Part shown: positions 10,791-35,185 of the stretch, piece by piece | Numbering within the stretch: position 1 is the stretch's first letter | Layout: every line of letters begins with the position of its first letter | DNA from: Agathobaculum sp. | Lineage (GTDB): Bacteria > Bacillota > Clostridia > Oscillospirales > Butyricicoccaceae | Assembly (NCBI RefSeq): GCF_034098985.1 | Contig: NZ_JAXEOA010000011.1 | Span: forward strand, 66,302-130,301 | DNA: 64,000 nt | Direction of reading: 5' to 3' | Program-made: the position numbers and the translations under genes | Notes under the pieces: model-generated | What the model was told of the DNA's origin: nothing | Seen by the model: the letters and a program-made list of their open reading frames with translations, nothing else | Database searches by the model: none

Positions 10791-10881
10791 GCGGAAGATG
10801 CTCCAGCGGACGGGTTTGGGGCAACAGGCGAAAGCCGCGTTGTCACCCGGTTACTAGCTCTTCCGTTTTTATTATTTTTTT
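10791..10881 (+). ncRNA. Candidate small structured RNA (class unknown)
   Basis: An extended -10 promoter (TGTTATAAT, 10776-10784) has TTGTTT about 16 nt upstream. An outer helix CGGAAGA(T)GCT / AGCTCTTCCG encloses a GAAA-capped hairpin (CAAC-A-GGC-GAAA-GCC-GC-GTTG), followed by a T-run. No same-strand gene lies downstream. Confidence 0.35.
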
Positions 10882-12984: not shown

Positions 12985-13111
12985 ATGCGTTCACTTCTTA
13001 TCCTTCCGCACAGTTTTGTCGAGCTGTTTACTATCTCTTGCATAATTATAACCTCTTAACCGAAATATATCAACAGAGCTACTATACACAGTGCTAGCGA
13101 TGTGGGGGGAT

Positions 13112-13823
13112 ATGGATAAGATGGATTCCTTGAATAACCAAATGCTTTTTTGGAATACTGATTGGAAAAGAAGGTGATGGTATCCGAGTACCCAAACACA
13201 TTGGCATTATCCCGGATGGAAACAGGCGTTGGGCGCAGAATGCAGGCCTCGAGAAAAAGGATGGATATCGGCATGGGCTGGCACCGGGGCTGGAAGTGCT
13301 GCGGCTAGCTCGGGAGGCTGGCGTCCGGGAGATCACATACTACGGCTTTACAACCGACAACTGCGGCCGCCCGAAAGAACAGGTGGACGCGTTTTCTAAG
13401 GCCTGCGCCGACGCGGTAGAGATGATAGCGGCCGAACCGGTTTCGCTGCTGGTAGTCGGCAACACAAAGGCGTCTGCCTTTCCGGATGCGCTGCGCCCAT
13501 ATACAACGCGAAGCGACCTTCATGGCGGCGGTATGCGGGTTAATTTTCTGGTGAACTACGGCTGGGAATGGGATCTTGCTGATCTAAAAACGCCGGGCAC
13601 TAACCGAAACGAAATTTGTGCAGAGCTTCGCTCGCATGATATTTCACGGGTCGATATGGTAATACGCTGGGGCGGAATGCGCCGGTTATCGGGATTTTTG
13701 CCAGTTCAGGCAGTTTATGCAGATTTTTTTGTAGTAGATAACTTATGGCCGGACTTTCAGGCAAACGACTTTTATGACGCGTTACGCTGGTACCAAAAGC
13801 AAGACGTGACTTTGGGTGGCTAA
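13112..13823 (+). pseudogene. uppS-like cis-prenyltransferase gene with an apparent +1 frameshift at a T6 run
   Basis: UppS-family motifs are present: HIGIIPDGNRRWA (from 13197), NFLVNYGWEWD and RWGGMRRLSGFLPVQAVYADFF. The motif frame is open only from 13134 and has no ATG/GTG/TTG before GTG 13296. SD plus ATG 13112 is in another frame that stops at 13175. The T6 run is at 13146-13151. Confidence 0.65.
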
Positions 13824-13860
13824 AAGTTGCATGCTGTACAGCAGGCCGATGGCTCATTTG

Positions 13861-13900
13861 GAAGGCAGCGCCGGATCCGCCAGGATCCGGCGCTGCCTTC
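13861..13900. terminator. Strong hairpin between convergent uppS-like and rubredoxin genes
   Basis: 18-bp perfect stem GAAGGCAGCGCCGGATCC / GGATCCGGCGCTGCCTTC with a 4-nt loop. There is no clear U-tract. Confidence 0.5.
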
Positions 13901-13903
13901 GCG

Positions 13904-14062
13904 TTAAGCCTCCTCAAACTGATCCTTTCCGACAAAGCAAAGCGGGCAGACCCATTCATCCGGAACGTTTTCCCATTTGGTGCCAGGGGCCACACCATTA
14001 TCCGGATCGCCTGCTTCCTCATCATAAATATAACCGCATATGATACAAACATATTTTTTCAA
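13904..14062 (-). CDS. Rubredoxin
   Basis: (M)[51 protein letters not shown] carries the two CxxC pairs. TTG 14062 lies 7 nt after GGAGGTG. Confidence 0.9.
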
Positions 14063-14328
14063 CGTATTCACCTCCACTGATATATTTAGTATAAACATAA
14101 AAGAAAATTGCATCCTTGGAAACAATGTTACAATTGATAAAAGTATGTGTCGCAATCATGCGGTTTTCTGCGAAAAAAATAGACTTTTGTGTGATATTGT
14201 GTTATACTTTCGATATTGAGTAAAAAATACACTGAAATAAGGTTGTTTGTCTATTTGGTGTAAATATGAATGGGCTTTAATAGAAATCGATATTAATTAA
14301 AAATAATTATTTATTTTTTCAAAACTAC

Positions 14329-14366
14329 TTGACATTAAACATGTTTAATACTATACTAAACATGTT
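14329..14366 (+). promoter_or_regulatory. Promoter with overlapping palindromic operator upstream of the Rrf2 gene
   Basis: TTGACA (14329-14334), 17-nt spacer, TATACT (14352-14357). The spacer holds the perfect palindrome TTAAACATGTTTAA (14335-14348), and a second AAACATGTT lies at 14358-14366. Confidence 0.55.
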
Positions 14367-14391
14367 CCAATTAGAGAAAGGAAGGAACAAC

Positions 14392-14799
14392 GTGAGAATC
14401 ACACATGAAGCGGATTATGCGATTCGTGTGGCCTATTGCCTCGGCCTTGCCGGTGGTAAGCAATGTGCCAAGGATATTTCAGAGATGACCGGCGTGACGC
14501 TTCGCTTTGCGCTTAAGATTCTGCGCAAGCTGACCCAGTCGGGCATTACAAAATCCTATAAAGGCGTGGCAGGAGGCTATGAGCTCAACCGGGCTCCTTC
14601 CGAAATCAGCTTAGGCGAGCTCATTGAATGCATTGACGGGCCGATTGCAATTAACCATTGCTTATCCAATGAGTTTCAATGTACCCGCGTAGGCGATCGG
14701 AATGAATGTGACTTCCACCGCGTTTTTGGAGAAATCAACAAGTCCCTGCGGGATGAACTGTTCTCCATCACCATGGAGCGCTTTCTTCCCAAAACATAA
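14392..14799 (+). CDS. Rrf2 family transcriptional regulator
   Basis: [18 protein letters not shown] is an Rrf2 N-terminal wHTH. A C-terminal Cys cluster ([19 protein letters not shown]) is present. GTG 14392 follows AAAGGAAGG. Confidence 0.9.
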
Positions 14800-14831
14800 T
14801 AAATTCTATTTTACATCAGGAGGAAAAAATC

Positions 14832-15380
14832 ATGAAAAAGTTTGTTTGTTCTGTTTGCGGTTATGTCCACGAGGGCGAAGCTGCCCCGGCTGAGTGCCCC
14901 ATCTGCCATGCGCCTGCCGCGAAGTTCACCGAGCAGTCCGGCGAGAAGACTTGGGCTGCCGAGCACGTAGTTGGCGTTGCGCAGGGCGCTCCTGAAGATA
15001 TTATTAAGGATCTTCGCATGAACTTTGAGGGCGAGTGCTCCGAGGTCGGCATGTATCTGGCGATGAGCCGCGTGGCGCACCGCGAGGGCTATCCGGAAAT
15101 CGGCCTATACTGGGAGAAGGCCGCTTATGAGGAAGCCGAGCACGCCGCCAAGTTCGCCGAACTGCTGGGCGAGGTGGTGACCGACTCCACCAAAAAGAAT
15201 CTCGAAATGCGCGTTGACGCGGAAAACGGCGCGACCGCGGGCAAGTTTGATCTGGCTAAGCGCGCTAAGGCGCTTAATCTGGACGCCATTCACGATACCG
15301 TCCATGAGATGGCACGCGATGAGGCCCGCCATGGCAAGGCCTTCGAGGGCCTGCTGGCTCGTTATTTCGGCAACAAGTAA
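14832..15380 (+). CDS. Reverse rubrerythrin (N-terminal rubredoxin-like domain plus diiron ferritin-like domain)
   Basis: N-terminus [10 protein letters not shown]...CPICHAP, and diiron motifs EGECSE...EEAEHAAKF...[11 protein letters not shown] is AGGAGG. Confidence 0.9.
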
Positions 15381-15396
15381 GGACCATCGGTTGCAG

Positions 15397-15432
15397 CCGG
15401 GAAGCTGGATACAGCTTCCCGGTTTTGGTTTT
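15397..15432 (+). terminator. Terminator after the rubrerythrin gene
   Basis: CCGGGAAGCTG-GATA-CAGCTTCCCGG followed by TTTT. Confidence 0.8.
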
Positions 15433-15641
15433 GGTGACAGATTCCCTTGAGTAGATTATACTTTATTCGCAGAGATAAGCCATGAAAAGCGATGGGAGAA
15501 GAAAAAGAGGGAACTCAAAATGGAAAACGAAGTACCCCAAAAACCAAACTCAAAGCAACCGGCATTTTGTACGTCATCGGCGGCGTGATTAGTCTGATCA
15601 TCAGACGATTGGCGCGAAGCAGAACAAAGACGCGGTACAGC

Positions 15642-15676
15642 AAAAAAAACGCTCCCATATGAGAGCGTTTTTTGTT
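15642..15676. terminator. Bidirectional terminator at the lrgB 3' end
   Basis: A8 run, AACGCTC / GAGCGTT stem, then TTTTTT. Confidence 0.7.
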
Positions 15677-16369
15677 TTATGAGAATATGACCGACCCTAT
15701 TGACACAAGCAGCGCGGTCAGCAGGCCTGAAACCCCGATAGCAAGGCCGCTCATCGCGCCTTCGGTCTCGCCCAGCTCAATTGCGCGTGAGGTGCCGACC
15801 GCGTGCGCCGCTGTGCCGATGGAAAGACCCATCTGCACTGGGTCGCGCACTCCGATCAGCTTGAGGAACGGCGGCAACAGGATCGCGCCGACGATGCCGG
15901 TGAATACGATGGCGATAGCGGTGACCGGCGCGAGGCCTCCCAACATTTCACTAAGCGCAACCCCGATCGGCGTGGTCACCGATTTGGGGACAAGCGAACG
16001 CATGGTAATATCAGAAAGCCCAAACAGGCGGGAAAAACCGATGACGCTGGCGATCGATACCGCTGATCCGACAAACGCACCGGCCAATATGGGGATCCAA
16101 TTGGCTTTCAACACATCCAACTTGCGGTAGATCGGCACGGCGAGCGCGACGGTAGCGGGTGTCAGGAAGAACGAGAGAAGCGAACCAGCCCGGTCGTAGG
16201 TCTCGAAAGAGGTCCCGCTTGCAACCAGCAACACGCCTACGATCAATGAAGCGATAAGCAGGGGATTTAGGAGCGGGGAATTGGTTTTCTGCTGACACCA
16301 CTGGCCGAAGGCGTAAGCCGCGATGGAAACGCCCAGCCAGAGAGCGGGCATGGAGAGCAGTTCAGTCAT
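15677..16369 (-). CDS. lrgB: LrgB family protein
   Basis: 230-aa polytopic protein with a typical LrgB N-terminus (MTELLSMPALWLGVSIAAYAFGQW). Its start overlaps the end of lrgA. Confidence 0.9.
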   Translation of the reverse strand: MTELLSMPALWLGVSIAAYAFGQWCQQKTNSPLLNPLLIASLIVGVLLVASGTSFETYDRAGSLLSFFLTPATVALAVPIYRKLDVLKANWIPILAGAFVGSAVSIASVIGFSRLFGLSDITMRSLVPKSVTTPIGVALSEMLGGLAPVTAIAIVFTGIVGAILLPPFLKLIGVRDPVQMGLSIGTAAHAVGTSRAIELGETEGAMSGLAIGVSGLLTALLVSIGSVIFS

Positions 16370-23928: not shown

Positions 23929-23967
23929 CATAGTTCATAAAAGTTGTTGAGGTATTGCCTCTGTTTT

Positions 23968-24010
23968 GGAATAATAGTGGCAGTTGAAAGACACGAGCCA
24001 TCCATAAACA
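23968..24010 (+). repeat. Degenerate duplicate of the recJ promoter/leader/start region
   Basis: GGAATAATAGTGGCAGTTGAAAGACACGAGCCATCCATAAACA aligns with 35276-35326. Shared blocks are ATAATAG, CAGTTGAAA, GAG and ATCCAT; ATG is ATA in this copy. Confidence 0.5.
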
Positions 24011-24109
24011 TTTATAGTGTTTATAACGTCTTTTGTGTTAAAATTAAAGCAGTTTAACAACTTTTAAAATCCGTATTTTCCACTGAGTACACTGAATGTT
24101 GTTGTAATT

Positions 24110-24132
24110 GTGGTCAAAATGTTGGTCAAAAA
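24110..24132 (+). repeat. Tandem TGGTCAAA motif, left copy
   Basis: GTGGTCAAAATGTTGGTCAAAAA, near-identical to 35164-35185. A single copy lies at 25766-25773. Confidence 0.5.
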
Positions 24133-24295
24133 TAGTACGATAAATTGCACTATAAACACACATGCATCTTGAATCAGTAATGGCGATAAAGGCCTATAGA
24201 AGCTGCGTATGGTACTATCAAGATAGCCTTAGAATCGCTTAGAACGTCGCTAAGGGACACTAACAGATAAATTCTAGATTCATTAATAACTCCAG

Positions 24296-24334
24296 AAAAA
24301 GCTCTGGCTGCTATTTAAGCAGCCAGAGCTTTTT
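24296..24334. terminator. Orphan bidirectional terminator in ORF-free AT-rich DNA
   Basis: AAAAA-GCTCTGGCTGC-loop-GCAGCCAGAGC-TTTTT. No credible gene ends next to it on either strand. Confidence 0.6.
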
Positions 24335-24468
24335 GCATATAGGGATTTATCGTCATTATAAGAAAAAGAAGATAAAAGGTCACTCTAAAGCGGCGATTGT
24401 CTGGCATCCGCACGGCATGACAAGAAAGACGTTTCGCAAAACAGGCATTGACTATTGGCATAAAATCA

Positions 24469-24486
24469 TATATTGTATACAATATA
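24469..24486. promoter_or_regulatory. 18-bp perfect palindrome, candidate LacI-family operator (autoregulatory)
   Basis: TATATTGTATACAATATA lies about 45 nt upstream of the LacI-type gene, and TTGACT lies at 24448-24453. Confidence 0.55.
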
Positions 24487-24532
24487 AAAGATATAATCAA
24501 AAAGCCTTGAGCGGGAATTGGGGGGAGAGCAG

Positions 24533-25534
24533 ATGTATACGAGACAGGATGTTGCAAAACTGGCGCATGTTTCAGTGGCGACCGTATCAAACGTCTTAAG
24601 CGGGAAGAAATATGTGAGCGCACCGCTGCAAAAACGCGTGCATGATGCAATCGAAGCGCTCGAATATCATCCCAATCAGGCTGCGCGCTGCCTTGCGACA
24701 AAACAGAGCCGGCATTTAGCGATTATCGTAAATGATATTTGCAATCCCCGCTATGCCGAGGTGACGGAAGCGATGCAAAAGGAGGCGGCTTCCCACGGGT
24801 ACATTGTTTCTATCGTCGATATCACGCGTTTTGGGATCGGAAACGGGCAGGTTTTTGATTTAATTGCACGAAACGTAGACGGCATTTTTGTGGCCACCTA
24901 TATTGATGAAATGCGAGCGGATATTGAGCGGGCGATGCAAAGCGGCATCTGTGTGGTTTCAGGGACGAGCGATTTAGGAGCGGTGCTGAAGATTGATTAT
25001 CAAGCGGCAATCGACGAGATGATTGCGGATTTGGCGGGGCTTGGGCATAGAAGCATTGGTTTTATCAGCTGCTACTCCATACACGAAACACAGCATGACA
25101 AATACAAATGCTATTGCCGCGCGCTGCAATCATGCGGCCTGCCGATAAATCCGTCTCTGGTTGTTGATGGCTGCCCGCCGTATCATGCGGATTTGGAAAC
25201 CGGATATGCCGCGACGCGCGAATTGCTTGCGCGCGGCATAGAACTGACGGCGGTATTTGCGGTGAACGATTTGGCGGCGATTGGAGCATGCCGTGCCATT
25301 CGGGAAGCGGGGCTTCGCATCCCACAGGATATCTCCGTGGTGGGATGCGACGATATCGCTTTTTCACAATATACGGAACCAAAGCTGTCCACTATCCATG
25401 TGCCCAAGGCAGAGATGGGCAGAAGAGCCGTACGCATGCTGAATTGCCAGCTGAACGGAGGCTCGTGTGAAAAAGTCTGCATGCCGTCCGGCTATGTGAG
25501 AAGGCAGACGGTGGCGTCCGCCAATGCGGGGTAA
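24533..25534 (+). CDS. LacI family transcriptional regulator
   Basis: MYTRQDVAKLAHVSVATVSNVLSGKKYVS is a LacI HTH, followed by a periplasmic-binding-fold core. SD is GGGGGGAGAG. Confidence 0.9.
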   Translation: MYTRQDVAKLAHVSVATVSNVLSGKKYVSAPLQKRVHDAIEALEYHPNQAARCLATKQSRHLAIIVNDICNPRYAEVTEAMQKEAASHGYIVSIVDITRFGIGNGQVFDLIARNVDGIFVATYIDEMRADIERAMQSGICVVSGTSDLGAVLKIDYQAAIDEMIADLAGLGHRSIGFISCYSIHETQHDKYKCYCRALQSCGLPINPSLVVDGCPPYHADLETGYAATRELLARGIELTAVFAVNDLAAIGACRAIREAGLRIPQDISVVGCDDIAFSQYTEPKLSTIHVPKAEMGRRAVRMLNCQLNGGSCEKVCMPSGYVRRQTVASANAG

Positions 25535-25557
25535 GCGGAATTGTGCGCGGCAAGAAG

Positions 25558-25595
25558 AAAGCGGTTCAGTCCGGAGGGGCTGAGCCGCTTTTTTG
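25558..25595 (+). terminator. Terminator after the LacI-type gene
   Basis: GCGGTTCAG / CTGAGCCGC stem (one G-U pair) followed by TTTTTT. Confidence 0.7.
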
Positions 25596-25805
25596 CGCCA
25601 ATTTGTGAAACAAGGGATAGCGATTGCGGTCCGGTAAAAACAGGCCCGGCACAGGAAAAGGAAAAATATAGAAAATAAATACGGATTAAAATTGATAAAA
25701 TACGCGCGTAACTTTAAAAAGGACGGAGATAGCTGACGAAAACATACAAATTTTCGCTTCATATTTGGTCAAATAATAAAAAATTTTTTATTGCGATAAA
25801 AATTA

Positions 25806-25843
25806 TTGACTTATAAGACTGGTGTGGTAGACTGTATACAATT
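25806..25843 (+). promoter_or_regulatory. Operon promoter with a second copy of the palindromic operator core
   Basis: TTGACT (25806-25811), 16-nt spacer, extended -10 TGGTAGACT. ACTGTATACAATT (25831-25843) shares TGTATACAAT with the palindrome at 24469-24486. Confidence 0.5.
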
Positions 25844-25895
25844 AAAGAGTAATAATCATAAAATAAAAAACGGAATTATATAAAGGGGTGAAGGC

Positions 25896-26528
25896 ATGCC
25901 TCATAAAAAGGTGCTCGAATATATTCCGATGGTCAAGTTTCTGGCACATATTCTGGGAGAGCATTGCGAGATCGTACTGCACGATCTGCAAAATAAAGAC
26001 AGTTCAATTTTGGCGATTGAAAACGGCTATTTAAGCGGCCGTTCCGTCGGCGGCGCGGCAACGGATTTTATCCTGCAAACCGTGCATACGGAAAGCTACA
26101 AAAATCGTGATTTTGAAAGCCGCTACATCGCAAAAACCTACAATAAGACCTTTTTATCGTCCAGTTACTTCATTAAGGATGACAAAGGCGAAATTGTCGG
26201 AACCTTATGTGTGAATATCGACAGCATGCCGTTTCAAAATGCCGTTGAGCTGCTGAATCAGTTTTTGCCGAAGCAGAGCAGCGGCAGAAACGAACCGGTG
26301 GAGCAGCTTTTGGGAGACACGAAGGAAATCGTACAAGCGATGGTCGAGCAAGTGGCGGGCCAGCTGCGGGTGCCGCGCGAGCGTATGTCCGTGCAGGAAA
26401 AAATGGCGGTGGTGAAGGAATTATCCGAGCGCGGCGCCTTTCAGTTACGCGGTGCTACTGGGGAAATCAGCAACGCGCTCGGCGTGTCGGAGCCAACCGT
26501 GTACCGCTATTTGAATAAAGTGAGATAG
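25896..26528 (+). CDS. YheO/DauR-like transcriptional regulator (PAS-like N-terminus plus C-terminal HTH)
   Basis: YIPMVKFLAHILGEHCEIVLHDLQN at the N-terminus, and the C-terminal HTH reads GATGEISNALGVSEPTVYRYLNKV. Confidence 0.8.
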   Translation: MPHKKVLEYIPMVKFLAHILGEHCEIVLHDLQNKDSSILAIENGYLSGRSVGGAATDFILQTVHTESYKNRDFESRYIAKTYNKTFLSSSYFIKDDKGEIVGTLCVNIDSMPFQNAVELLNQFLPKQSSGRNEPVEQLLGDTKEIVQAMVEQVAGQLRVPRERMSVQEKMAVVKELSERGAFQLRGATGEISNALGVSEPTVYRYLNKVR

Positions 26529-26572
26529 TCCGAAAAACGGATCATCATAATAATTTCTAGGAGGATGAAAAA

Positions 26573-27763
26573 ATGAAAAGAAAGACAAGAATTGGTGCGT
26601 TATTGACGGTTTTAGTCCTGATGACGGCGCTGGTATCCGGTTGCGGCGGCGGTGCGGGAGAAAGCGGCGCCGGCGGTTCGGCGGAGGGCAATATAAAAAT
26701 CGGCTTTTTCGCGCCGCTGACAGGCAATATGATGCAGTACGGCGTATCATTCCAAAATGCGATTGATATGAAGGTGGAGGACATCAACGCACAGGGCGGT
26801 ATTGACGGCCGGAAGATTGAAATTGTGCCGTTTGACGATAAGGGAGATCCCAAGGAAGCAGTTAACATTGCAAATAAAATTACGTCCGATCCGGATATCA
26901 AGGTGGCGATCGGTTCGTTTTCCTCGTCGTGTTCCATGGCGGCGGCGCCGGTGTTTGAACAGGCCGGTATCCTGCATTTGGGGCCGACTGCCTCCCATCC
27001 GGATTTCGTAACCATGGGGGATAAGGCCTTTACCATCGCTATGACCATGAAATTTGAAGCGGCGGCGGACGCGAATTATGCCTATCAGAAAACCGGCGGC
27101 AAGGATATGGCCATCATTTACTTAAACAGCGATTACGGCGTGTCCCATGCGAGCGTGCTCAAGGAACAGTACGAGGCGAACGGCGGCAAGGTCGTAGCAT
27201 ATGAGGAATTCATTCCCGGCCAGACCAAGGATTTTACGCCGCTCATCACCAAGGTGAAGCAGAGCAACCCCGGCTCGCTTTTTGTCATTGCGGATTACTC
27301 GGACGGTGCGAATATTTTCAAGCAGGCGCAGAAGCTGGATTTGAAATGCGATCTGATCGGCCCCGGCATGCTGATCAAGGATGAGTTTATCGACGTTGTC
27401 GGCGACGCGGCGGAGGGGCTGCTGATGCTTTCAACGCTGCCGATCTATTCCGAGGACGACCGCGAAAACAAGGACTCCAATAAAGCTGCCTTTGTTTCCG
27501 AGTATCAGGACAAGTACGGTGTAATTCCGGACGGTTTCCCGGCAAACGCCTATGACTGCATTACGCTGCTCACCAACATGATCGCGGAGGTTGGCTACGA
27601 TACGGATGCGCTGGCCGAGCAGTTCCGCCAGCTTGGCCGGTATGAGGGCGTTTCCGGCAACATCACGATTGATCCGGAGACAAAGGAAGTAAAGCGCGAC
27701 CTGATGGTCTACACCATTCAGGACGGGAAATATGTGATCGACGAGGTCGTTCCTGCTTCATAA
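26573..27763 (+). CDS. ABC transporter substrate-binding lipoprotein (LivK / branched-chain amino-acid type)
   Basis: Lipobox LVSGCGG. Type-I PBP pattern IKIGFFAPLTGNMMQYG...GGIDGRKIEIVPFDDKGDPKEA. Confidence 0.9.
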   Translation: MKRKTRIGALLTVLVLMTALVSGCGGGAGESGAGGSAEGNIKIGFFAPLTGNMMQYGVSFQNAIDMKVEDINAQGGIDGRKIEIVPFDDKGDPKEAVNIANKITSDPDIKVAIGSFSSSCSMAAAPVFEQAGILHLGPTASHPDFVTMGDKAFTIAMTMKFEAAADANYAYQKTGGKDMAIIYLNSDYGVSHASVLKEQYEANGGKVVAYEEFIPGQTKDFTPLITKVKQSNPGSLFVIADYSDGANIFKQAQKLDLKCDLIGPGMLIKDEFIDVVGDAAEGLLMLSTLPIYSEDDRENKDSNKAAFVSEYQDKYGVIPDGFPANAYDCITLLTNMIAEVGYDTDALAEQFRQLGRYEGVSGNITIDPETKEVKRDLMVYTIQDGKYVIDEVVPAS

Positions 27764-27817
27764 GCAGGTCTGCGCATACCAATGTCATGCGCGGTGAATC
27801 CGTAAGGGAGGGAAAAT

Positions 27818-28696
27818 ATGTTTTTTCAACAGGTCGTCAACGGTTTGACCATAGGCAGCATGTATGCGTTGGTTGCGATTGGCTATACAATGGTATTCGG
27901 CGTTTTAAAGCTGGTCAATTTCTCACATGGCTCCGTGTTTATGGTGGGCGCATACTTGACCCTACAGCTCAGTATCGCGCTCGGCGGACACTTCTTTTTG
28001 GCGGCGGCGCTCAGCCTGCTGCTGACCGGCGTGCTTGGCGTGGCGATTGACCGCTGCGCGCTGCGCCGTCTGCGCGAAAAGAAAGCGGATCGCATTACCG
28101 CGCTGATTTCCACGCTGGGCGTCGCCACAATTTTGGACAATGGCGTGATGATCGCGTTCGGCTCGGAGACTAAGGCGTTTCCGAATGTGCTGCAGCTGGG
28201 TAAATTTACGATCGGCGGCACCGTCGTCAGTTGGGTGCAGATCATTATTCTGCTTTTGGCGCTGGTGCTGATGGGAGCGATGAGCATTGTCGTTTACCGC
28301 ACCAAAATGGGACGCGCCATGCGCGCCACCTCGCAGAATGCGGACGCCGCGAAGCTAATGGGCATCAATGTAAATTATGTCGTGGCGTTCACGTTTTTTG
28401 TGGGCTCGCTGCTGGCCTCGGTCGCCGGCACGATGTACGGCATGTATTACGAGGCGATCGACCCGCTGATGGGCTCGGTCATCAGCATGAAAACCTTCGC
28501 CTGCGTGGTGCTGGGCGGCGTCGGCGTGCTGCCGGGCGCTATGCTGGGCGGGCTGCTGATCGGCGTGGTCGAAGCGGTTGGTGCGAGCTACATCAGCTCG
28601 GGATACCGGGACGCGATTGCGTTTGCAATTCTGATTTTGGTGCTCGTGCTTCGCCCGCAGGGCATCCTTGGCAAAAAAGTTGCCGATAAGATTTAA
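27818..28696 (+). CDS. Branched-chain amino-acid-type ABC permease (LivH-like)
   Basis: MFFQQVVNGLTIGSMYALVAIGYTMVFGVLKLVNFSHG is the canonical LivH N-terminus. Confidence 0.9.
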   Translation: MFFQQVVNGLTIGSMYALVAIGYTMVFGVLKLVNFSHGSVFMVGAYLTLQLSIALGGHFFLAAALSLLLTGVLGVAIDRCALRRLREKKADRITALISTLGVATILDNGVMIAFGSETKAFPNVLQLGKFTIGGTVVSWVQIIILLLALVLMGAMSIVVYRTKMGRAMRATSQNADAAKLMGINVNYVVAFTFFVGSLLASVAGTMYGMYYEAIDPLMGSVISMKTFACVVLGGVGVLPGAMLGGLLIGVVEAVGASYISSGYRDAIAFAILILVLVLRPQGILGKKVADKI

Positions 28697-28710
28697 GGAG
28701 GGGAGAGAAT

Positions 28711-29724
28711 ATGATGAATACCATTTATGCGCTCATGGCGAAAAAGCAAAAGCTGATTCAGCTGGTGCTTTTGGCCGCCGCAATCGTGTTTCCGCTGGCG
28801 GTTAAAAACCCATATGCAATCCGCTTGGCTATTTTGTCGGGTATCTTCGTGATTCTGTCCCTGAGCCTCAATCTGCTCACCGGCTTCGCGGGTCAAATTT
28901 CGCTGGGACATATCGCATTCTACGGGATTGGCGCGTACACCGCTGCGATCCTTTCCAAAAATTTCGGCGTGAATTTTATTCTGTGCATGCTGGCGGCCAT
29001 GGTGACCGCAGGGCTGTTCGGTTTTCTGCTGGGTCTGCCTACCTTGAAGCTGGGGGGTTACTATTTGGCCATTGTCACGCTCGGTTTTTCGGAAATTGTC
29101 CGTTTGGTGGAAATCAACTGGATGGAATTGACAAATGGGCCGTTGGGTATCAACGGCATTCCGAAGCCGGCGCTGTTTGGACTGAAATTATCCTCGCCGT
29201 CCGCCTATTACTTTATTTGCCTGCTTTTGGTGGTGCTGACGTTGGTGGTTATCCGCAATATCCTCAACTCCAGAATCGGCTATGCGCTGGGCACCGTCCG
29301 CGGGGACGATAACGCGGCGAAATTTATGGGGGTTAATGTATTTCGATATAAAATTTTGGCCTTTGTCATTTCGGCTGCGTTCGCCGGTTTGGCGGGCGCG
29401 TTCTTTGCACAGTACGTTACCTTTATCGACCCGACCAGCTTTGCGTCCGATCAATCGACGCTGATTTTGATTATGATAATCTTCGGCGGCATCGGCTCGC
29501 TGCCCGGCAGCATCATTGGCGCGGTCGTGCTGACGCTGGTGCCCGAGCTGTTGCGCGATCTGATGGAATACCGCATGCTGATTTACGGCGTGGTGCTGGT
29601 ATTTATGATGCTGGTACGGCCTGAAGGTCTGCTGGGAAAGATAAACTTTAAGCATATACGGCAGCAGGCCTCGGTCGGACGGCTGGGCGCCGCAAAACTT
29701 GGGAAGGACGGGGATGCCGCATGA
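28711..29724 (+). CDS. Branched-chain amino-acid-type ABC permease (LivM-like)
   Basis: LNLLTGFAGQISLGHIAFYGIGAYTAA is a LivM signature. Confidence 0.9.
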   Translation: MMNTIYALMAKKQKLIQLVLLAAAIVFPLAVKNPYAIRLAILSGIFVILSLSLNLLTGFAGQISLGHIAFYGIGAYTAAILSKNFGVNFILCMLAAMVTAGLFGFLLGLPTLKLGGYYLAIVTLGFSEIVRLVEINWMELTNGPLGINGIPKPALFGLKLSSPSAYYFICLLLVVLTLVVIRNILNSRIGYALGTVRGDDNAAKFMGVNVFRYKILAFVISAAFAGLAGAFFAQYVTFIDPTSFASDQSTLILIMIIFGGIGSLPGSIIGAVVLTLVPELLRDLMEYRMLIYGVVLVFMMLVRPEGLLGKINFKHIRQQASVGRLGAAKLGKDGDAA

Positions 29725-30488
29725 GCGAGACGATATTGCAAACACAGGATGTGGTGCAGCGCTTCGGCGGTCTGACCGCAGTCAACCGGGTTAGCATGAA
29801 GATCGAGAAAAACCAGATCGTCGGCTTGATCGGCCCCAACGGCGCCGGGAAAACGACTTTTTTCAACGTGATCACGGGCGTCAACACGCCGACGGAAGGA
29901 AGCGTTGCGTTTAAGGGGCGGATGATAACGGGACTTCCGGCCCATCAAATTGTGGAGCATGGGATTGCGCGCACCTTTCAAAACATCCGTCTGTTTAAGA
30001 ATATGACCGCACAGGAAAACGTCATCGCGGGCATGCATTCCAGAACGAAATCAACGCTGCTTGACTGCATTTTTCGAACCCCGCGCCACAGAAAAGAGAC
30101 GAGGGAGTGCGAGGCGCGGGCGGATGAGCTGCTGCGGCTGGTCGGTCTGTATGAATACCGCTTTGATTTGGCGACCAGCCTGCCGTACGGACACCAGCGG
30201 CGTTTGGAAATTGCCCGCGCACTGGCCAGCGATCCGGTATTGCTGCTGCTCGACGAACCGGCGGCCGGTATGAACGAGCAGGAGACGGCGGAGCTTCTTT
30301 CGTTCATCTGCCAAATTCGGGACATGGGATACACGATCCTGCTGATCGAGCACGATATGAAATTGGTGATGAGCGTTTGCGAAAATATTTACGTGCTCGA
30401 CCACGGAGAGCTGATCGCGCAGGGCGAACCCGAGCAAATCAAGAACGACGCGCGCGTCATCGAAGCATATCTTGGAAAGGAGGCTTGA
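29721..30488 (+). CDS. ABC transporter ATP-binding protein (LivG-like)
   Basis: Walker A GPNGAGKTTFFN, signature LPYGHQRRLEIARAL, and a LivG-type C-terminus (VIEAYLG). Confidence 0.9.
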   Translation: MSETILQTQDVVQRFGGLTAVNRVSMKIEKNQIVGLIGPNGAGKTTFFNVITGVNTPTEGSVAFKGRMITGLPAHQIVEHGIARTFQNIRLFKNMTAQENVIAGMHSRTKSTLLDCIFRTPRHRKETRECEARADELLRLVGLYEYRFDLATSLPYGHQRRLEIARALASDPVLLLLDEPAAGMNEQETAELLSFICQIRDMGYTILLIEHDMKLVMSVCENIYVLDHGELIAQGEPEQIKNDARVIEAYLGKEA

Positions 30489-30490
30489 GC

Positions 30491-31198
30491 ATGGCGTTTC
30501 TCAAAATTGAAAACCTGCACGTCCATTATGGCGCGATCCACGCACTGAAAGGAATCAGCTTGGAAGTCAATCAGGGTGAAATCGTCACGCTGATCGGCTC
30601 TAACGGCGCGGGTAAAACGACGACGATGTACACGGCTGCGGGTATACTCAAGCCGTCCGCCGGTAAAATCATTTTCGAGGACGAAGATATCACAAAGCTG
30701 GACGCGCCGCATATTGTCCAGCGTGGAATTTGCCTGTCTCCGGAGGGCAGACAGGTGTTTCCTGAGCTCACCGTTAAGGAAAATTTGGATTTGGGCGCGT
30801 TTTTACGCACCTCCCGCGAGCGGGACGAAACGCTGGAGGTGGTATACGAGCTGTTTCCGCGCATTAAGGAGCGCATGCATCAGGCGGCGGGCACGCTGTC
30901 GGGCGGGGAGCAGCAAATGCTTGCGGTTGGCCGCGCGCTGATGGGCAAGCCCAAGCTGCTGATGCTGGACGAGCCATCGCTCGGTCTGGCGCCGATCATC
31001 ATTCAGGAGATTTTCAACCTGATCGTGCGGATCAATAAATTGGGAACCACCATTTTACTTGTCGAACAGAACGCAAAAATGGCGCTGCGCATATCGAGCC
31101 GCGGGTACGTACTGGAAACCGGTAAAATCGTGCTCAGCGATCGGGCGGATGCTTTGCTGACAAGCGAAAAGGTTCGCGCCGCGTATTTGGGAGGTTAA
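30491..31198 (+). CDS. ABC transporter ATP-binding protein (LivF-like)
   Basis: MAFLKIENLHVHYG, Walker A GSNGAGKTTT, signature LSGGEQQMLAVGRAL. ATG 30491 follows the livG-like stop. Confidence 0.9.
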   Translation: MAFLKIENLHVHYGAIHALKGISLEVNQGEIVTLIGSNGAGKTTTMYTAAGILKPSAGKIIFEDEDITKLDAPHIVQRGICLSPEGRQVFPELTVKENLDLGAFLRTSRERDETLEVVYELFPRIKERMHQAAGTLSGGEQQMLAVGRALMGKPKLLMLDEPSLGLAPIIIQEIFNLIVRINKLGTTILLVEQNAKMALRISSRGYVLETGKIVLSDRADALLTSEKVRAAYLGG

Positions 31199-31201
31199 AC
31201 G

Positions 31202-32491
31202 GTGGAAACATTGACGAATCAAGAGCGTTTCCTCAAAATCATGGAAAAAGAAATGGTTCCCGCGGTTGGCTGCACGGAACCGATAGCCGTTTGCTATACG
31301 GCGGCTGTCGCGCGGAAGCATGCGCCCGACAAGGTGAAAAAGGTGCGCTGCCGCGCCAGCGTCAATATTATTAAAAACGTGGCTTCGGTCACGATTCCCG
31401 GAACGCACGGCAGAAACGGCATGAAACTGGCCTGCGCGCTTGGCGTTGCAAAGCCCGATGTGGATCGCAAGCTGGAAATCCTCGACGGCTTGACGGAGGA
31501 ACAGCTTCAAACGGCTGTTTCTCTGGTGGAGGAGGGGCTGGTCGAGGTGGAAATGGCTGACGTGAAGTGCGCGCTCTACATTGAAGTCGAGATCGAGACG
31601 GAGCTGCACAAGGTCAGGACGATCACGCAGTATGCGCATGTAAACACCACGCTGCTTGAAGTAGACGGAAAACTTGAGCATACGTTAAACGAGGGGGAGC
31701 GGACGGAGCAGACGGACGAGCTCTATCAGGCGCTGAATTTAAAGACAATTTTGGATTTTTCCAATACGGTTCCCATGAAAGATTTGTCCATTGTGCAAAA
31801 CGCCATCAAAACGAATACGGCAATTGCAAAGGATGGCCTTGCGCGGGAGTATGGCTTGCAGGTTGGGAAAACGCTTTCCGAATCGGTGGACAAGCTGATG
31901 CTGTCGAACGATTTGGCGACCTATGCGATGATGCTGGCGTCCGCAGGGTCGGACGCCAGAATGGCGGGAAGCTCGCTGCCGGCCTATTCCAACTCGGGTT
32001 CCGGCAATCAAGGAATCACGGCGACCATGCCCGTCGCCGCCGCGGCGGAGAAGCTGAACGCCACGGAAGAGCAGACCGTCCGCGCCTGCGCGATCAGCAA
32101 TTTGACGGCTATTTTCATTAAGCATAAGCTGGGAAAGCTTTCCTCGGTATGCGGCGCGATTGTCGCGGCGACAGGAGCCGCCTGCGGAATCGTCTATTTG
32201 ATGGGCGGAAAATTGCCGGAAACGGTCAGCGCGGTCAAAAACATGCTGGGAAACGTGGCGGGAATGTTTTGCGACGGCGCGAAGGCAAGCTGCGCGCTGA
32301 AGGTATCCACCTGCGCCAACGCGGCGGTGCAGGCGGCGATTCTAGCGATGAACACGCATTATATCAAGGGAACCGACGGCATTGTCGGCAATACGGCGGA
32401 TGAAACCGTGGCAAATTACTGCCGCATTTTGTCGGAAGGCGTACCGGAACTTGATAAAACGCTTTTGGATATAATCATCAGCAAGGAATAA
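31202..32491 (+). CDS. UPF0597 / CyuA (YhaM)-like protein, related to serine dehydratase alpha chain and L-cysteine desulfidase
   Basis: VPAVGCTEPIAVCYTAAVA near the N-terminus, ~430 aa, Cys-containing C-terminal region (GMFCDGAKASCALK). GTG 31202 lies 7 nt after GGAGG. Confidence 0.75.
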   Translation: METLTNQERFLKIMEKEMVPAVGCTEPIAVCYTAAVARKHAPDKVKKVRCRASVNIIKNVASVTIPGTHGRNGMKLACALGVAKPDVDRKLEILDGLTEEQLQTAVSLVEEGLVEVEMADVKCALYIEVEIETELHKVRTITQYAHVNTTLLEVDGKLEHTLNEGERTEQTDELYQALNLKTILDFSNTVPMKDLSIVQNAIKTNTAIAKDGLAREYGLQVGKTLSESVDKLMLSNDLATYAMMLASAGSDARMAGSSLPAYSNSGSGNQGITATMPVAAAAEKLNATEEQTVRACAISNLTAIFIKHKLGKLSSVCGAIVAATGAACGIVYLMGGKLPETVSAVKNMLGNVAGMFCDGAKASCALKVSTCANAAVQAAILAMNTHYIKGTDGIVGNTADETVANYCRILSEGVPELDKTLLDIIISKE

Positions 32492-32561
32492 GAACGAAGG
32501 CGGCGGGCGCCCGTTGAAGAACGCCGCCGCAATCGCATTATAAACGGAAAGGAAGTATGAA

Positions 32562-33584
32562 ATGACAGCAACTCAGCGGATGAAAGCCATGGTAAACGGA
32601 CAGCCGGTCGACCGTGTCGGTGTGTCGGCGTGGAAGCATATTTATTTGGAGGACCGGCATCCGGTTGATTTTGTAAAGCGTACCTGCTCCTTCCAGCAGG
32701 ATAATGATTGGGATTTCGTCAAAGTAAGCTACAACGGATATTTGATGCCCGAAGCATTCGGCGCTGATATCGCATGGAGTCCGGATTCCAATACGTTTCC
32801 AACGATGCTAAAACATAACGTCAATCATCCGGCGGAGTGGGCGGAGCTCAAACCGGCCAGCGTTACCGAGGGTGCGCTGCGGCGTGAAATCGACGCAACG
32901 GCGCGCATGGTTGAGCATTTTAAGGGAGAGGTTCCGATTCTGCCGACGATTTTCAGCCCGTTAACCGCAGCGCAGGAAATGTCGTGCGGCTGGCTGAACC
33001 CTTGGCCGCTGATGGCCGATATGCAATACAGCCCGAGCGAACTGCATCAGGGCTTGGAAATCATTGCGGAGACGACGGCGCGGTTTATGGAGGAACTGGT
33101 CAAGGTCGGCGTCGACGGTGTGTTTTTCGCCACGCAGCTTGCGTGCTATAACCGCGCGACGAAGGAGCAGTATGACGAATTCGGCCGCAAGTACGATCTT
33201 AAGCTGCTCGACGCGATTCAGGATAAAACTTGGCTGAATATGGTGCATATCCATGGCGCGGAGCAGCTGTTCTTCACGGAAATCGAGGATTATCCGGTGC
33301 AGGCCTTTAACTGGGAGGATATCAATAGCAATATTTCGCTTGCGTACGCGCGTGCGCATACGGATAAGATTCTTTGCGCGGGCATTGAGCATGTACATGA
33401 CTTTTACGAACCCGATCGCGCGGTATTAAAGGAAAAGCTGCGCGCGCGCGTCCAAACGGCGATCGCAGCCGCCGGCAAGGAAAAGCTGGTGATCGGGCCG
33501 GGCTGCGTTGTGCCGACGGATGTGCCGGAATACCGCCTTACCGTGCTGAAGGAAGTCGTTGAGGAGATGGGTGCAAATGGCTGA
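32562..33584 (+). CDS. Uroporphyrinogen decarboxylase (URO-D) fold family protein
   Basis: 340 aa. The N-terminus (MTATQRMKAMVNGQPVDRVGVSAW) and overall pattern resemble URO-D/MtaA-like proteins. No corrinoid-protein gene lies nearby. Confidence 0.7.
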   Translation: MTATQRMKAMVNGQPVDRVGVSAWKHIYLEDRHPVDFVKRTCSFQQDNDWDFVKVSYNGYLMPEAFGADIAWSPDSNTFPTMLKHNVNHPAEWAELKPASVTEGALRREIDATARMVEHFKGEVPILPTIFSPLTAAQEMSCGWLNPWPLMADMQYSPSELHQGLEIIAETTARFMEELVKVGVDGVFFATQLACYNRATKEQYDEFGRKYDLKLLDAIQDKTWLNMVHIHGAEQLFFTEIEDYPVQAFNWEDINSNISLAYARAHTDKILCAGIEHVHDFYEPDRAVLKEKLRARVQTAIAAAGKEKLVIGPGCVVPTDVPEYRLTVLKEVVEEMGANG

Positions 33585-34611
33585 TACGGCGAAAAAGGCG
33601 CGGATCGGCATTCTGGGCTGCGGGCAGATCGTCAAGATCCGGCATGCGCCCGAGCTGGCCGCGTGCCGGTGGGCGGAGCCCGCGGGTTTCTATGATTTTT
33701 ATCCTGAACGCGCGGAAGAATACGCCGCCCAATATGGCGGCAGGGCATATGCGGATTATCATGATATGCTCGCCGACCCCACTGTTGACGGCGTGGTCGT
33801 CTGCACGGCAAACAATGCGCATGCCGCCATGTCCATTGAAGCGCTGCAAGCCGGGAAATATGTATTGTGCGAGAAACCCATGGCTACGACGCGGGAGGAC
33901 GCCGAACGGATTTTGCGGGTGGAAAAAGAGAGCGCCGGCTTTTTTATGGCGGCGCACAATCAGCGGTTTACGCTGGCACACAAAACGGCCAAAGCGCTGC
34001 TGGCGAGCGGAGAAATGGGAAAGGTGCTGTCCTTTCGCTGCACCTTGGCGCATCCGGGTCCAGAGCGGTTTAGCGTAAACCGTTCAAATGCGACTTGGTA
34101 TTTTAACAAAGCGGCCTCCGGTTTGGGCTGCGTGTCCGATCTGGGCATTCATAAATGCGATGTTTTAATGCATATCCTTGGCGAGCCGATCACATCGGTT
34201 GGCGCGATTGCCGGCACGCGCGATAAACGGGACGAAAGCGGAAAGCTCGCCGCAATTTATGATAACGCGGTATGTGTGCTGGAAACGGCTTCGGGTATCA
34301 TGGGAACACTCAGTCTGTCCTATACCAATTACGGTGGAATGGAGAATACGACCGTATATTACTGCGAAAAAGGCGTGCTTCGCGTACAATACCATCCGGA
34401 CTGTGCGCTGGAGGTCGTCATGGACGGGGGACAAACGACCCGCTATTATGACGTTCCGAATCCACGTTCAGGCGTCGTAGATGCTTTTGCCGAAGCGATT
34501 GTGACAGAAAAAGCGTCGCCGATAGCGGCCGCGCAGGCCTTTCAGGCAATGAAAACCGTTTTTGCGATTGATGAAGCCGCGCGCAGCGGGTCGTTTGTGA
34601 AAATAGGGTAA
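33577..34611 (+). CDS. Gfo/Idh/MocA family oxidoreductase
   Basis: ARIGILGCGQIVKIRHAPEL is a Rossmann N-terminus and CEKPMATT is the family motif. ATG 33577 overlaps the preceding stop by 8 nt. Confidence 0.85.
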   Translation: MADTAKKARIGILGCGQIVKIRHAPELAACRWAEPAGFYDFYPERAEEYAAQYGGRAYADYHDMLADPTVDGVVVCTANNAHAAMSIEALQAGKYVLCEKPMATTREDAERILRVEKESAGFFMAAHNQRFTLAHKTAKALLASGEMGKVLSFRCTLAHPGPERFSVNRSNATWYFNKAASGLGCVSDLGIHKCDVLMHILGEPITSVGAIAGTRDKRDESGKLAAIYDNAVCVLETASGIMGTLSLSYTNYGGMENTTVYYCEKGVLRVQYHPDCALEVVMDGGQTTRYYDVPNPRSGVVDAFAEAIVTEKASPIAAAQAFQAMKTVFAIDEAARSGSFVKIG

Positions 34612-34619
34612 GGCAAGAT

Positions 34620-34877
34620 GACAGACAATCCCCTATATATCTCCTTCTGCATCGTCGGCCGGTATAAATCCCATGCGGGACGGCTGCATCCTGTTACAGG
34701 GAAAGCATCGAAGTCTTTGGCTTCGGTGCTTTTCACTCTTTTCTTAAATATGGCGCATTTCTATAATGCAGTTTTTGCACACGATCTTCCTCTTGTAGTT
34801 CACAAGGTCATCGGACATCCGCAGAATATGCAATTCGGCATATATTTTTTAAGACGACGTTTTCAGTGGATTTCATA
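34620..34877 (-). pseudogene. Gene remnant: good SD plus ATG but the frame breaks after 22 codons
   Basis: On the reverse strand AGGAGTG, a 7-nt spacer, then ATG at 34877 gives MKSTENVVLKNICRIAYSADVR*. Coding-like stretches continue in other frames (DDLVNYKRKIVCKNCIIEMRHI*). I recognise no family. Confidence 0.3.
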
Positions 34878-34984
34878 ATAAGTACACTCCTAAATAAATT
34901 TTACATGTTTTAAGTGATCTACATTCTTCGACATTGATCTACCATTCCTCCCCATCTCTTTTCATATTTATCATATATGCGTTT

Positions 34985-35017
34985 AAAATATGGCTGCCAT
35001 CTTGGCAGCCATATTTT
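34985..35017. terminator. Orphan bidirectional terminator at the right island edge
   Basis: 15-bp perfect stem AAAATATGGCTGCCA / TGGCAGCCATATTTT with a 3-nt loop. Confidence 0.6.
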
Positions 35018-35163
35018 CATGCCGTTTCATCGATCGCCGTCATAAGAAAGGAAGATAATTGTTTTAAACTTACGCTGGATGTATATGCAAAATCAACCTC
35101 GAGCATGAAGGAAGAATCGGTAAGAAAGTTCGAAAATATGATTGCGCTCTCGTCAATCCAATA

Positions 35164-35185
35164 GTGGTCAAATATTGGTCAAAAA
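35164..35185 (+). repeat. Tandem TGGTCAAA motif, right copy
   Basis: GTGGTCAAATATTGGTCAAAAA; compare 24110-24132. Confidence 0.5.

Follow-up and report, generated by a model that had tools for sequence, protein, structure and literature searches.

Within a 64,000-nt stretch of Agathobaculum sp. DNA from contig NZ_JAXEOA010000011.1 (the whole stretch is called the window here), we describe a block of ten plus-strand genes that encodes a Liv-type ATP-binding cassette (ABC) importer together with a CyuA-type L-cysteine desulfidase, a protein of the uroporphyrinogen decarboxylase (URO-D) fold and an oxidoreductase of the Gfo/Idh/MocA family (GFO). The module is probably a substrate-specific catabolic operon with a new enzyme activity. 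Our favored interpretation, to which we give somewhat less than an even chance, is a catabolic or salvage route in which the URO-D-like enzyme would liberate cysteine from an adduct, by which we mean an extracellular amino-acid-like compound whose cysteine sulfur, and possibly nitrogen, would be tied up by a sugar- or aldehyde-derived group. No curated model described the module and no paper on it was found in the literature, in agreement with a first-pass annotation of the window that knew of no described pathway. That annotation guessed at a sulfur-containing amino-acid derivative as the substrate, and the comparative evidence points to the same kind of compound.

All ten genes listed in that annotation, the complete Liv-type importer included, were recovered with their coordinates and domains by open reading frame (ORF) listing and by Pfam and NCBIfam scans. 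The genes, with the signals that bracket the operon, are as follows.

24533-25534, plus strand: LacI-family regulator (Pfam LacI and Peripla_BP_3), with its ATG at 24533 after the ribosome-binding site GGGGAGAG
25806-25864, plus strand: operon promoter-like region, with the near-palindrome CTGTATACAAT at 25832-25842
25896-26528, plus strand: YheO/DauR-type regulator, first gene of the operon (Pfam PAS_6 and HTH_22)
26573-27763, plus strand: lipoprotein substrate-binding protein (SBP) of the LivJ/K (HAAT) type, lipobox LVSGC (Pfam Peripla_BP_6)
27818-28696, plus strand: LivH-like permease (BPD_transp_2; Pfam, NCBIfam)
28711-29724, plus strand: LivM-like permease (BPD_transp_2; Pfam, NCBIfam)
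29721-30488, plus strand: LivG-like ATPase (Pfam, NCBIfam)
30491-31198, plus strand: LivF-like ATPase (Pfam, NCBIfam), with its ATG at 30491 after the ribosome-binding site GGAAAGGAGG
31202-32491, plus strand: predicted CyuA-type [4Fe-4S] L-cysteine desulfidase (SDH_alpha/UPF0597; PF03313)
32562-33584, plus strand: URO-D-fold, MtaA-like putative zinc enzyme, His229-x-His231...Cys315 (PF01208)
33577-34611, plus strand: Gfo/Idh/MocA NAD(P) oxidoreductase (PF01408, PF22725, PF02894)
34700-34734, plus strand: operon intrinsic terminator, a 16-pair stem followed by a T-rich tail

The nine genes from yheO to gfo (25896-34611) are predicted to form one operon, because they are separated by 70 nt or less or overlap one another and lie between a promoter-like region and a terminator. 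The overlap between livM and livG is 4 nt, and the uroD-like stop codon and the gfo ATG overlap by 8 nt within ATGGCTGA. The lacI gene ends in its own hairpin and T-run (~25560-25595), ~300 nt ahead of yheO, and is therefore a separate transcription unit. None of the operon or LacI proteins attains any NCBIfam equivalog cut-off, with the best LacI scores far below, so that the label "uncharacterised" is fair.

The protein encoded between the importer and the URO-D-like gene matches PF03313 with 189 bits over residues 89-422 and aligns end to end with E. coli CyuA at 38% identity (E 1e-83). The key residues of Methanococcus maripaludis CyuA are the Cys23/Glu25 dyad, Arg223, Asn239 and the cluster cysteines Cys287, Cys329 and Cys336, plus Lys339 (PMC12647591). 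In an alignment with the structure of that enzyme (9HE0), the Cys/Glu dyad is kept (GCTEP in the window protein, GCTEV in 9HE0), as are the anion-site Arg and Asn (daRMaG against ntRMiG, SGNQGI against SGNMGI) and the three cluster Cys with the Lys (SSVCGA and FCDGAKASCALK against SSMCGA and ICDGGKVGCALK). By family and residues, the protein would be a CyuA-type L-cysteine desulfidase, one of the two activities that had been considered for it. The other, L-serine dehydratase (SdaA/TdcG), was rejected: a BLASTP comparison with the serine deaminase TdcG of E. coli gave merely 23.5 bits over 67 residues, no SDH_beta was found by Pfam, and the CyuA-specific residues are present.

Proteins of the URO-D fold act as decarboxylases or as methyltransferases of the methylcobamide type, and our results place the URO-D-like protein of the window nearer to the second group. 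Using a profile of 24 family sequences, MtaA (4AY7) was the best solved relative, and the invariant LHiHG and PGC of the family aligned with the MtaA zinc ligands LHICG and PGC. An AlphaFold2 model (pLDDT 95.4) gave 4AY8/4AY7 (MtaA) as the top Foldseek matches (TM 0.79), then HemE and then MetE. The candidate ligands are essentially invariant: all 85 primary copies have His229 and His231, and 84 of them have Cys315. The 15 second copies retain the His-x-His...Cys motif as well, except that a single copy carries Cys at the position of His231 (His231 in 14 of 15). Asp31, Asp51, Lys54, Arg6, His26, Trp24 and Trp251 are invariant too. A HemE-type decarboxylase was rejected (TIGR01464, 19.9 bits against a cut-off of 302.95), and the scores against the MtaA/MtbA-type models also lie below their cut-offs (PRK06252, 67.3 against 244; TIGR01463, 55.2 against 235). 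We therefore regard the protein as MtaA-like with a predicted variant zinc site, and not HemE-like. Because MtaA is nearest by both profile and fold and the His-x-His...Cys motif is so well kept, zinc-sulfur chemistry would be the expected mode of action. The family is large, with ~759 clusters at 50% identity (E <= 1e-30) among 1.84 billion representatives.

To place the module in context, we compared 85 non-redundant loci carrying the URO-D-like family (79 GTDB species and 6 contigs, given here as L numbers) by mechanical ORF calling, phmmer/HMM searches and Pfam checks, counting neighbors within 8 kb of the URO-D-like gene. The identical cassette, SBP-LivHMGF-CyuA-UROD-GFO, surrounds URO-D-like homologues of 80-84% identity, and is carried whole by three metagenome-assembled genomes (MAGs, L001-L003), Clostridiaceae bacterium strain 9 (L014), Butyricicoccus sp. 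(L018, both named as in GTDB) and the metagenome contig L096. The genomes nearest to the window are Butyricicoccus-like Clostridia, and it is among these that the entire cassette is found again. Paenibacillus forsythiae (L006, 52% identity) has the arrangement UROD-GFO-YheO-SBP-LivHMGF, with a Cys_Met_Meta_PP enzyme in the desulfidase's place. A CyuA-like desulfidase was a neighbor in 25 of the 85 loci, spanning Oscillospirales, Lachnospiraceae (Dorea, Enterocloster citroniae, strain 3-2), Erysipelotrichaceae, Flavonifractor and Synergistaceae. The Cys_Met_Meta_PP type was found in 2/85 (Paenibacillus L006 and Lachnospiraceae L054) and a PatB/MalY-like C-S lyase in 4/85 (L020, L047, L034, L054), so that 30/85 loci have at least one of these three unrelated types of cysteine-degrading enzyme. 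A single-copy gene would by our estimate fall within 8 kb of another given gene by chance in well under 1% of genomes, and the association of the URO-D-like protein with CyuA, at 25/85, is therefore real. When metagenomes were scanned in the reciprocal direction, with the CyuA-like protein as query, the single locus recovered was L096, a frameshift-ridden copy of the same operon, which is too little for a reciprocal statistic.

These comparisons bear out the idea of a coherent uptake-plus-conversion unit, and the possibility that the neighborhood is conserved nowhere else falls with the cassettes found in other genomes. The combination of three enzymes held in part: the URO-D-like protein with a cysteine-degrading enzyme is conserved, and GFO is limited to the closest clade. 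As the desulfidase residues are kept, CyuA-like genes accompany 25 of the 85 URO-D-like genes and non-homologous C-S lyases occupy the same place elsewhere, we infer that cysteine is an intermediate of the pathway. The conserved core consists of the URO-D-like protein and a cysteine-degrading enzyme, and the variable part would be the processing of a small sugar or carbonyl compound.

The variable partners fall under two themes. The first is that of thiazolines and thiazolidines. ATC hydrolase and an M20-type amidohydrolase form a known two-step route from 2-aminothiazoline-4-carboxylate (ATC) to L-cysteine, and ATC_hydrolase genes were found in 12/85 loci and M20 amidohydrolases in 9/85. In the two closest relatives (L014, L018), ATC_hydrolase and a short-chain dehydrogenase (SDR) are encoded directly 5' of the SBP gene, with an M20 amidohydrolase also upstream in L014. 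Beside the URO-D-like protein, Enterobacter, Raoultella and a Clostridium MAG encode ATC_hydrolase, an enzyme resembling pyrroline-5-carboxylate (P5C) reductase, a Glyoxalase_3 protein and an ABC system of the SBP_bac_3 type, and P5C-reductase-like genes are also present in L017, L043 and L051. Thioproline is known to be oxidised by ProC (PMC12899673), and an anaerobic gut organism naturally stores cysteine in the form of thiazolidine-4-carboxylates (PMC4222106). The ATC_hydrolase, M20 and P5C-reductase-like partners are the reason for considering thiazolidines. A compact variant in Erysipelotrichaceae (L033, L040-L042, L044, L046, L050) has a YesM/YesN-type two-component system, ATC_hydrolase, a Liv ABC system, UROD, CyuA and a second UROD, and no oxidoreductase or corrinoid protein was found in it.

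The second theme is that of sugars and carbonyls. A GFO gene accompanies the URO-D-like gene in 9/85 loci, and the pairing is kept in L001, L004, L006, L010, L014, L018 and L021-L023. It does not extend beyond the closest clade; other loci have aldo-keto reductases or different dehydrogenases in its stead, or lack such a gene. Aldo-keto reductases number 9/85 and Dak1/Dak2 6/85, the two occurring together in L012 and in Lachnospiraceae loci. PfkB is found in L010 and L052, RpiB in L052 and L064, and a Hyi-like isomerase with a 2-hydroxyacid dehydrogenase (2-Hacid_dh) and a thiamine pyrophosphate enzyme in E. citroniae (L036), with a fumarate-reductase-like flavoprotein in L048 and GH42 with a sugar ABC system in L008. 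Because of the GFO or aldo-keto reductase, Dak, PfkB, RpiB, Hyi-like and GH42 partners, one half of the adduct would be a sugar or carbonyl compound. The GFO protein of the window has an N-terminal Rossmann and a C-terminal alpha/beta domain; its highest-scoring NCBIfam model is IolG, with 134.8 bits where 355 are required, and its best PDB match is DgpA (2.8e-27). None of the characterised specificities covered by the IolG, levoglucosan dehydrogenase, xylose dehydrogenase and glycoside 3-dehydrogenase models was reached, and the protein would be a generic sugar/inositol-type dehydrogenase.

The importer is a complete five-component HAAT (Liv-type) set, with a Peripla_BP_6 SBP, two BPD_transp_2 permeases and LivG- and LivF-type ATPases. 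This is the architecture of the E. coli LivJ/LivKHMGF system, with the same families, and the SBP matches PDB LivJ/LivK at about 1e-32 and is 27% identical to LivJ. It differs from that system in that the window proteins score below the equivalog cut-offs and in its binding site. We take Tyr18, Ser79, Thr102, Tyr202 and Glu226 to be the amino-acid-binding residues of LivJ, with Glu226 as the ligand of the substrate alpha-ammonium. Tyr18 and Ser79 have invariant counterparts, Ser stands in for Thr102, Tyr202 is offset by one position, and Gly takes the place of Glu226 in the SBP and its close relatives alike. This Gly weakly suggests a ligand that lacks a free primary amine or is bound differently, compatible with a ring or an N-substituted amino acid. 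Across the loci the amino-acid-type importers vary: Liv-type ABC in 16/85, TRAP in 9/85 and MetQ/NlpA-type ABC (MetNIQ) in 6/85, besides SBP_bac_3 systems. A ~390-aa multi-pass membrane protein with no Pfam match is encoded between the GFO and M20 genes in Maledivibacter (L004, 13123-14289) and a Lachnospiraceae locus (L023, 4658-5851), and may be an undescribed transporter that substitutes for the ABC system there.

We propose the following sequence of events. The SBP and LivHMGF-like ABC system, whose transporter type is clear from its domains, would import the adduct. The zinc of the URO-D-fold enzyme, held by His229, His231 and Cys315, would bind the sulfur, break the masking bond and free L-cysteine by stabilising the departing thiolate. 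In MT2/MetE-type enzymes the zinc activates a thiol for alkylation, and the proposed step would follow the reverse logic. The translationally coupled GFO would handle the sugar or aldehyde part, either by oxidising the adduct just before cleavage (thiazolidine to thiazoline, hydroxyalkyl to oxoalkyl) or by oxidising the released aldose. The desulfidase would then convert L-cysteine into pyruvate, NH4+ and H2S, a step well supported by residue-level conservation. Expression would be controlled by the YheO-type regulator and probably also by the LacI-type regulator through a common ATTGTATACAAT operator.

For the adduct, our first choice is a compound of the thiazolidine-4-carboxylate type, formed when cysteine condenses with a sugar or an aldehyde, a doubtful assignment when taken by itself. 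The second, an S-(hydroxyalkyl/glyceryl/glycosyl)-cysteine thioether, is unlikely; in that variant, oxidation of a conjugate (S-glyceryl-cysteine or S-hydroxyalkyl-cysteine, for example) would come first and elimination would follow. Adducts of any other type are highly improbable. Bacillithiol/mycothiol-type cysteine-sugar amides, S-ribosylhomocysteine and opine-like substrates were considered, and no specific support was found for any of them.

Several observations weigh against the release of cysteine from an adduct as the function of the module. The substrate is deduced from neighboring genes only, and the thiazoline argument stems from relatives, as the window itself has no ATC_hydrolase, M20, SDR, Dak or aldo-keto reductase gene. 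The His2Cys site differs from the classic His-Cys-Cys site (PMC10418091), and such a ligand set is by itself no proof of sulfur binding. No cysteine-degrading gene lies within 8 kb in 55/85 loci, mostly those of 33-36% identical homologues from Chloroflexota and Armatimonadota that stand beside peptide-type ABC systems; the URO-D-like family may therefore have more than one function, with perhaps a different one in its distant homologues. In Maledivibacter (L004), an AlaDh_PNT enzyme accompanies the URO-D-like protein and GFO, and a desulfidase is absent. Rfam searches at the gathering threshold detected only tRNAs in the window and nothing near the module in 14 related loci, and thus no S-box, T-box, other sulfur-responsive leader or riboswitch in either.

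Three other explanations were considered. In the first, the module would serve methyl-sulfur metabolism: the URO-D-like protein would be a true MT2-type enzyme that takes the methyl group from S-methyl-L-cysteine or from a compound of the methionine type, with the help of free cobalamin or of a corrinoid protein whose gene lies elsewhere, and the cysteine would pass to CyuA. MtaA is after all the closest protein by structure and sequence, the desulfidase lies downstream in the scheme, Lachnospiraceae loci have MetNIQ-type importers, and clusters of UroD-superfamily Mlp proteins, which have the same TIM-barrel fold and a zinc site at the same positions, have been proposed to act on methyl-sulfur and methyl-selenium compounds (PMC10418091). 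However, the partners needed for corrinoid-dependent methyl transfer were not found. The first-pass annotation had noted the absence of a corrinoid protein, and none was detected by Pfam among the window genes at 17391-43104; a crude B12-motif scan of the whole window gave 0 matches, and neither a corrinoid protein nor a reductive activase appeared among the precomputed Pfam annotations for the related contigs L001-L013. A Type 1 mlp cluster, as defined by Kountz and Balskus, has at least two Mlp paralogues, a corrinoid protein along with a Ram/RACE activase, whereas the window has a single URO-D-like gene with no corrinoid protein, activase or second methyltransferase, and has a desulfidase and an oxidoreductase as partners instead. 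In the UroD superfamily, S-methyltransferases have a His-Cys-Cys zinc sphere and O-methyltransferases carboxylates (PMC10418091), and the predicted His-His-Cys sphere matches neither pattern. Together with the sub-cut-off MtaA/MtbA scores (67 against 244 bits) and the lack of a pterin-binding methyltransferase in the window and the related loci examined, this led us to reject membership in a corrinoid methyltransferase system. Demethylation would also leave the oxidoreductase, Dak, PfkB, ATC_hydrolase and M20 partners unexplained, and we consider it an unlikely function.

The second explanation dispenses with sulfur. GFO would oxidise a polyol or amino-sugar acid, the URO-D-fold protein would decarboxylate or isomerise the product, and SDH_alpha would act as a dehydratase or deaminase on a serine-like intermediate, in a pathway for a sugar, an inositol or a hydroxy-amino acid. 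The best GFO matches are sugar and inositol dehydrogenases, a LacI-type regulator adjoins the operon, sugar kinases and isomerases recur in related loci, and URO-D proper is a decarboxylase. Such a pathway is at odds with an SDH_alpha protein that carries the CyuA-specific Cys/Glu dyad and resembles CyuA and not, meaningfully, TdcG; with the pyridoxal phosphate-dependent C-S lyases, not dehydratases, that take its place elsewhere; and with the failure of the HemE model (19.9 against 303 bits) for a protein whose zinc motif is MT2-like. We regard it as distinctly unlikely.

A merely loose association, in which the ABC system and CyuA would import and ferment cysteine or an ordinary amino acid and the URO-D-like/GFO pair would be unrelated and simply co-transcribed, finds an analogy in E. 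coli CyuA, which is paired with an importer only (PMC9040844), and in L004, L021 and L022, where URO-D-like and GFO genes occur with no desulfidase, but is very unlikely given the tight spacing and overlaps in the window and the CyuA-like gene beside the URO-D-like gene in so many species-level loci with five transporter types, far above the chance level.

The proposed cysteine-releasing module can be compared with several known systems. One is CyuP-CyuA of E. coli and Salmonella (with the M. maripaludis CyuA structures 9HE0/9FSL), which shares with the window a CyuA-type desulfidase with all catalytic residues, co-transcribed with an importer. Unlike that system, the window has the five-component Liv-type ABC importer instead of the CyuP permease and regulators of the YheO and LacI types instead of CyuR, and its clade always co-encodes the URO-D-like protein and GFO. 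In the Xanthobacter coenzyme M pathway, an epoxyalkane:CoM transferase is followed by 2-hydroxypropyl-CoM dehydrogenase and 2-ketopropyl-CoM carboxylase. It offers an analogy for the thioether variant, as a zinc enzyme of the MetE/URO-D superfamily acts on a thiol or thioether and an alcohol dehydrogenase oxidises a hydroxyalkyl thioether before C-S cleavage; in contrast to our proposal, its thiol is coenzyme M, its zinc enzyme forms the thioether, and the sequence relation is at the superfamily level only.

The Pseudomonas route from ATC to L-cysteine uses the ATC hydrolase AtcB and the N-carbamoyl-L-cysteine amidohydrolase AtcC. It resembles our proposal, as does thioproline oxidation by ProC/PutA (PMC12899673), in its end product, cysteine, and in that related loci encode ATC_hydrolase and some of them M20 or P5C-reductase-like enzymes. 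Neither pathway has a URO-D-like or Gfo-type enzyme, and the window has none of those three enzymes; with ATC_hydrolase and M20 both absent from the whole window, the module was not assigned to the AtcB/AtcC pathway. Bacillus subtilis regenerates cysteine from S-modified cysteine imported by an amino-acid ABC system, through the yxe operon in the case of S-(2-succino)cysteine and through CmoO/CmoJ in that of S-alkylcysteine (PMC9706529, PMC10863075, PMC12757645), and the M20 deacylases in several related loci are a further likeness. Those routes, however, rely on O2-dependent flavin monooxygenases, or on a lyase whose paper names neither uroporphyrinogen decarboxylase nor zinc, whereas the present module occurs in strict anaerobes, has no oxygenase and would degrade cysteine and not only salvage it. 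By the features that define them, neither the CyuPA, MT2 and mlp systems nor these aerobic routes include the module.

Regulation of the module was examined through its promoters, and its genomic setting through the repeats around it.

24455-24503, plus strand: lacI promoter, with the perfect palindrome ATTGTATACAAT at 24472-24483 overlapping the -10 hexamer
24111-24132, plus strand: left copy of a 21-22 nt direct repeat, TGGTCAAAATGTTGGTCAAAAA
35165-35185, plus strand: right copy of the same repeat, TGGTCAAATATTGGTCAAAAA

The lacI and operon promoters have in common a 35-nt segment (77% identity) centered on ATTGTATACAAT and CTGTATACAAT, respectively. The palindrome recurs directly 5' of the SBP gene in L096 (2272-2283) and, as AATTGTATACAATT, 155 nt 5' of the URO-D-like gene in Pseudogracilibacillus L030 (9847-9858), the only matches with one mismatch or less in 1.5 Mb of fetched related loci. 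Because it also precedes module genes in these two loci, we consider it probably a conserved operator of the module. In the window this common palindrome is the only tie between lacI and the operon, and a LacI homologue was found in 1/85 loci. The first-pass annotation had counted LacI as a part of the module, and this was not borne out; its overall interpretation stood for the module and its conservation, and was revised for LacI membership and for enzyme details. Regulators vary between loci and include YheO, IclR, sigma-54 activators, AraC, GntR and two-component systems, with YheO-type genes also present in the Paenibacillus (L006) and Spirochaetaceae (L020, L047) loci.

The surroundings of the block are housekeeping genes: uvrB and uvrA upstream, recJ and relA downstream, and RNase J, serine hydroxymethyltransferase (SHMT) and PGI further out. 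The two copies of the direct repeat, TGGTCAAA(A/T)..TTGGTCAAAAA, flank the 11-kb block of lacI and operon, itself between uvrA and recJ, and are the only two matches in the window (0 expected by chance). The repeat may represent an att-like scar of an insertion or a site for a regulator. Since the block is bracketed by repeats between uvrA and recJ and relatives hold the cassette in other genomic contexts, these data suggest that lacI and the operon were acquired as a unit.

Other features were observed in the same regions. A half copy of the repeat, TTGGTCAAATA, lies at 25765-25775, just 5' of the operon promoter. On the plus strand at 35021-35164, an ORF tail that ends in CFKLTLDVYAKSTSSMKEESVRKFENMIALSSIQ before its stop codon resembles the C-terminal end of a tyrosine recombinase and is possibly a mobile-element remnant; a tblastn search against phage genomes gave no match for it. 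Between the operon terminator and recJ there are an 86-aa ORF (34618-34878, plus strand) and minus-strand ORFs of 22-29 aa (34744-34876), with no family match. The gap between uvrA and lacI contains a 600-bp AT-rich non-coding stretch (23930-24520) with a perfect 17-bp inverted repeat at 24296-24334, flanked by A and T runs, that looks like a bidirectional terminator, and a similar GGCTGC...GCAGCC hairpin lies at the other side of the block (~34985-35017). Further upstream, right after two tRNA genes (10059-10140 and 10170-10252), the G+C content of 10001-16000 is 0.46-0.49, against ~0.57-0.60 elsewhere. This segment, which may have been acquired separately, holds genes for a membrane-anchored glycerophosphodiester phosphodiesterase (11191-12984, minus strand) and an LrgB-like protein (15677-16369, minus strand).

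A more general proposition, which we find rather doubtful at present, is that, within the UroD/MT2 superfamily, the corrinoid-free His-x-His...Cys clade with its ~760 clusters at 50% identity consists of zinc-dependent C-S hydrolases or lyases that release cysteine, with which anaerobes, gut Clostridia among them, would harvest cysteine independently of oxygen from Maillard-type or aldehyde adducts, namely thiazolidine-4-carboxylates, or from S-conjugates and convert it into pyruvate and H2S. If this is true, a sizeable branch of the uroporphyrinogen-decarboxylase/methyltransferase superfamily that now has no annotation would receive its first function, and a corrinoid-independent, zinc-assisted release of a thiol would be a reaction type new for the fold. 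Hundreds of genes that at present bear the label "uroporphyrinogen decarboxylase family protein" could then also be annotated better, and the module would represent an anaerobic counterpart of the oxygen-dependent salvage of cysteine S-conjugates in Bacillus. Cysteine-sugar and cysteine-aldehyde adducts arise in food processing and in anaerobic metabolism, and for butyrate-producing gut Clostridia these compounds would then be an unrecognised dietary or host-derived source of H2S and pyruvate.

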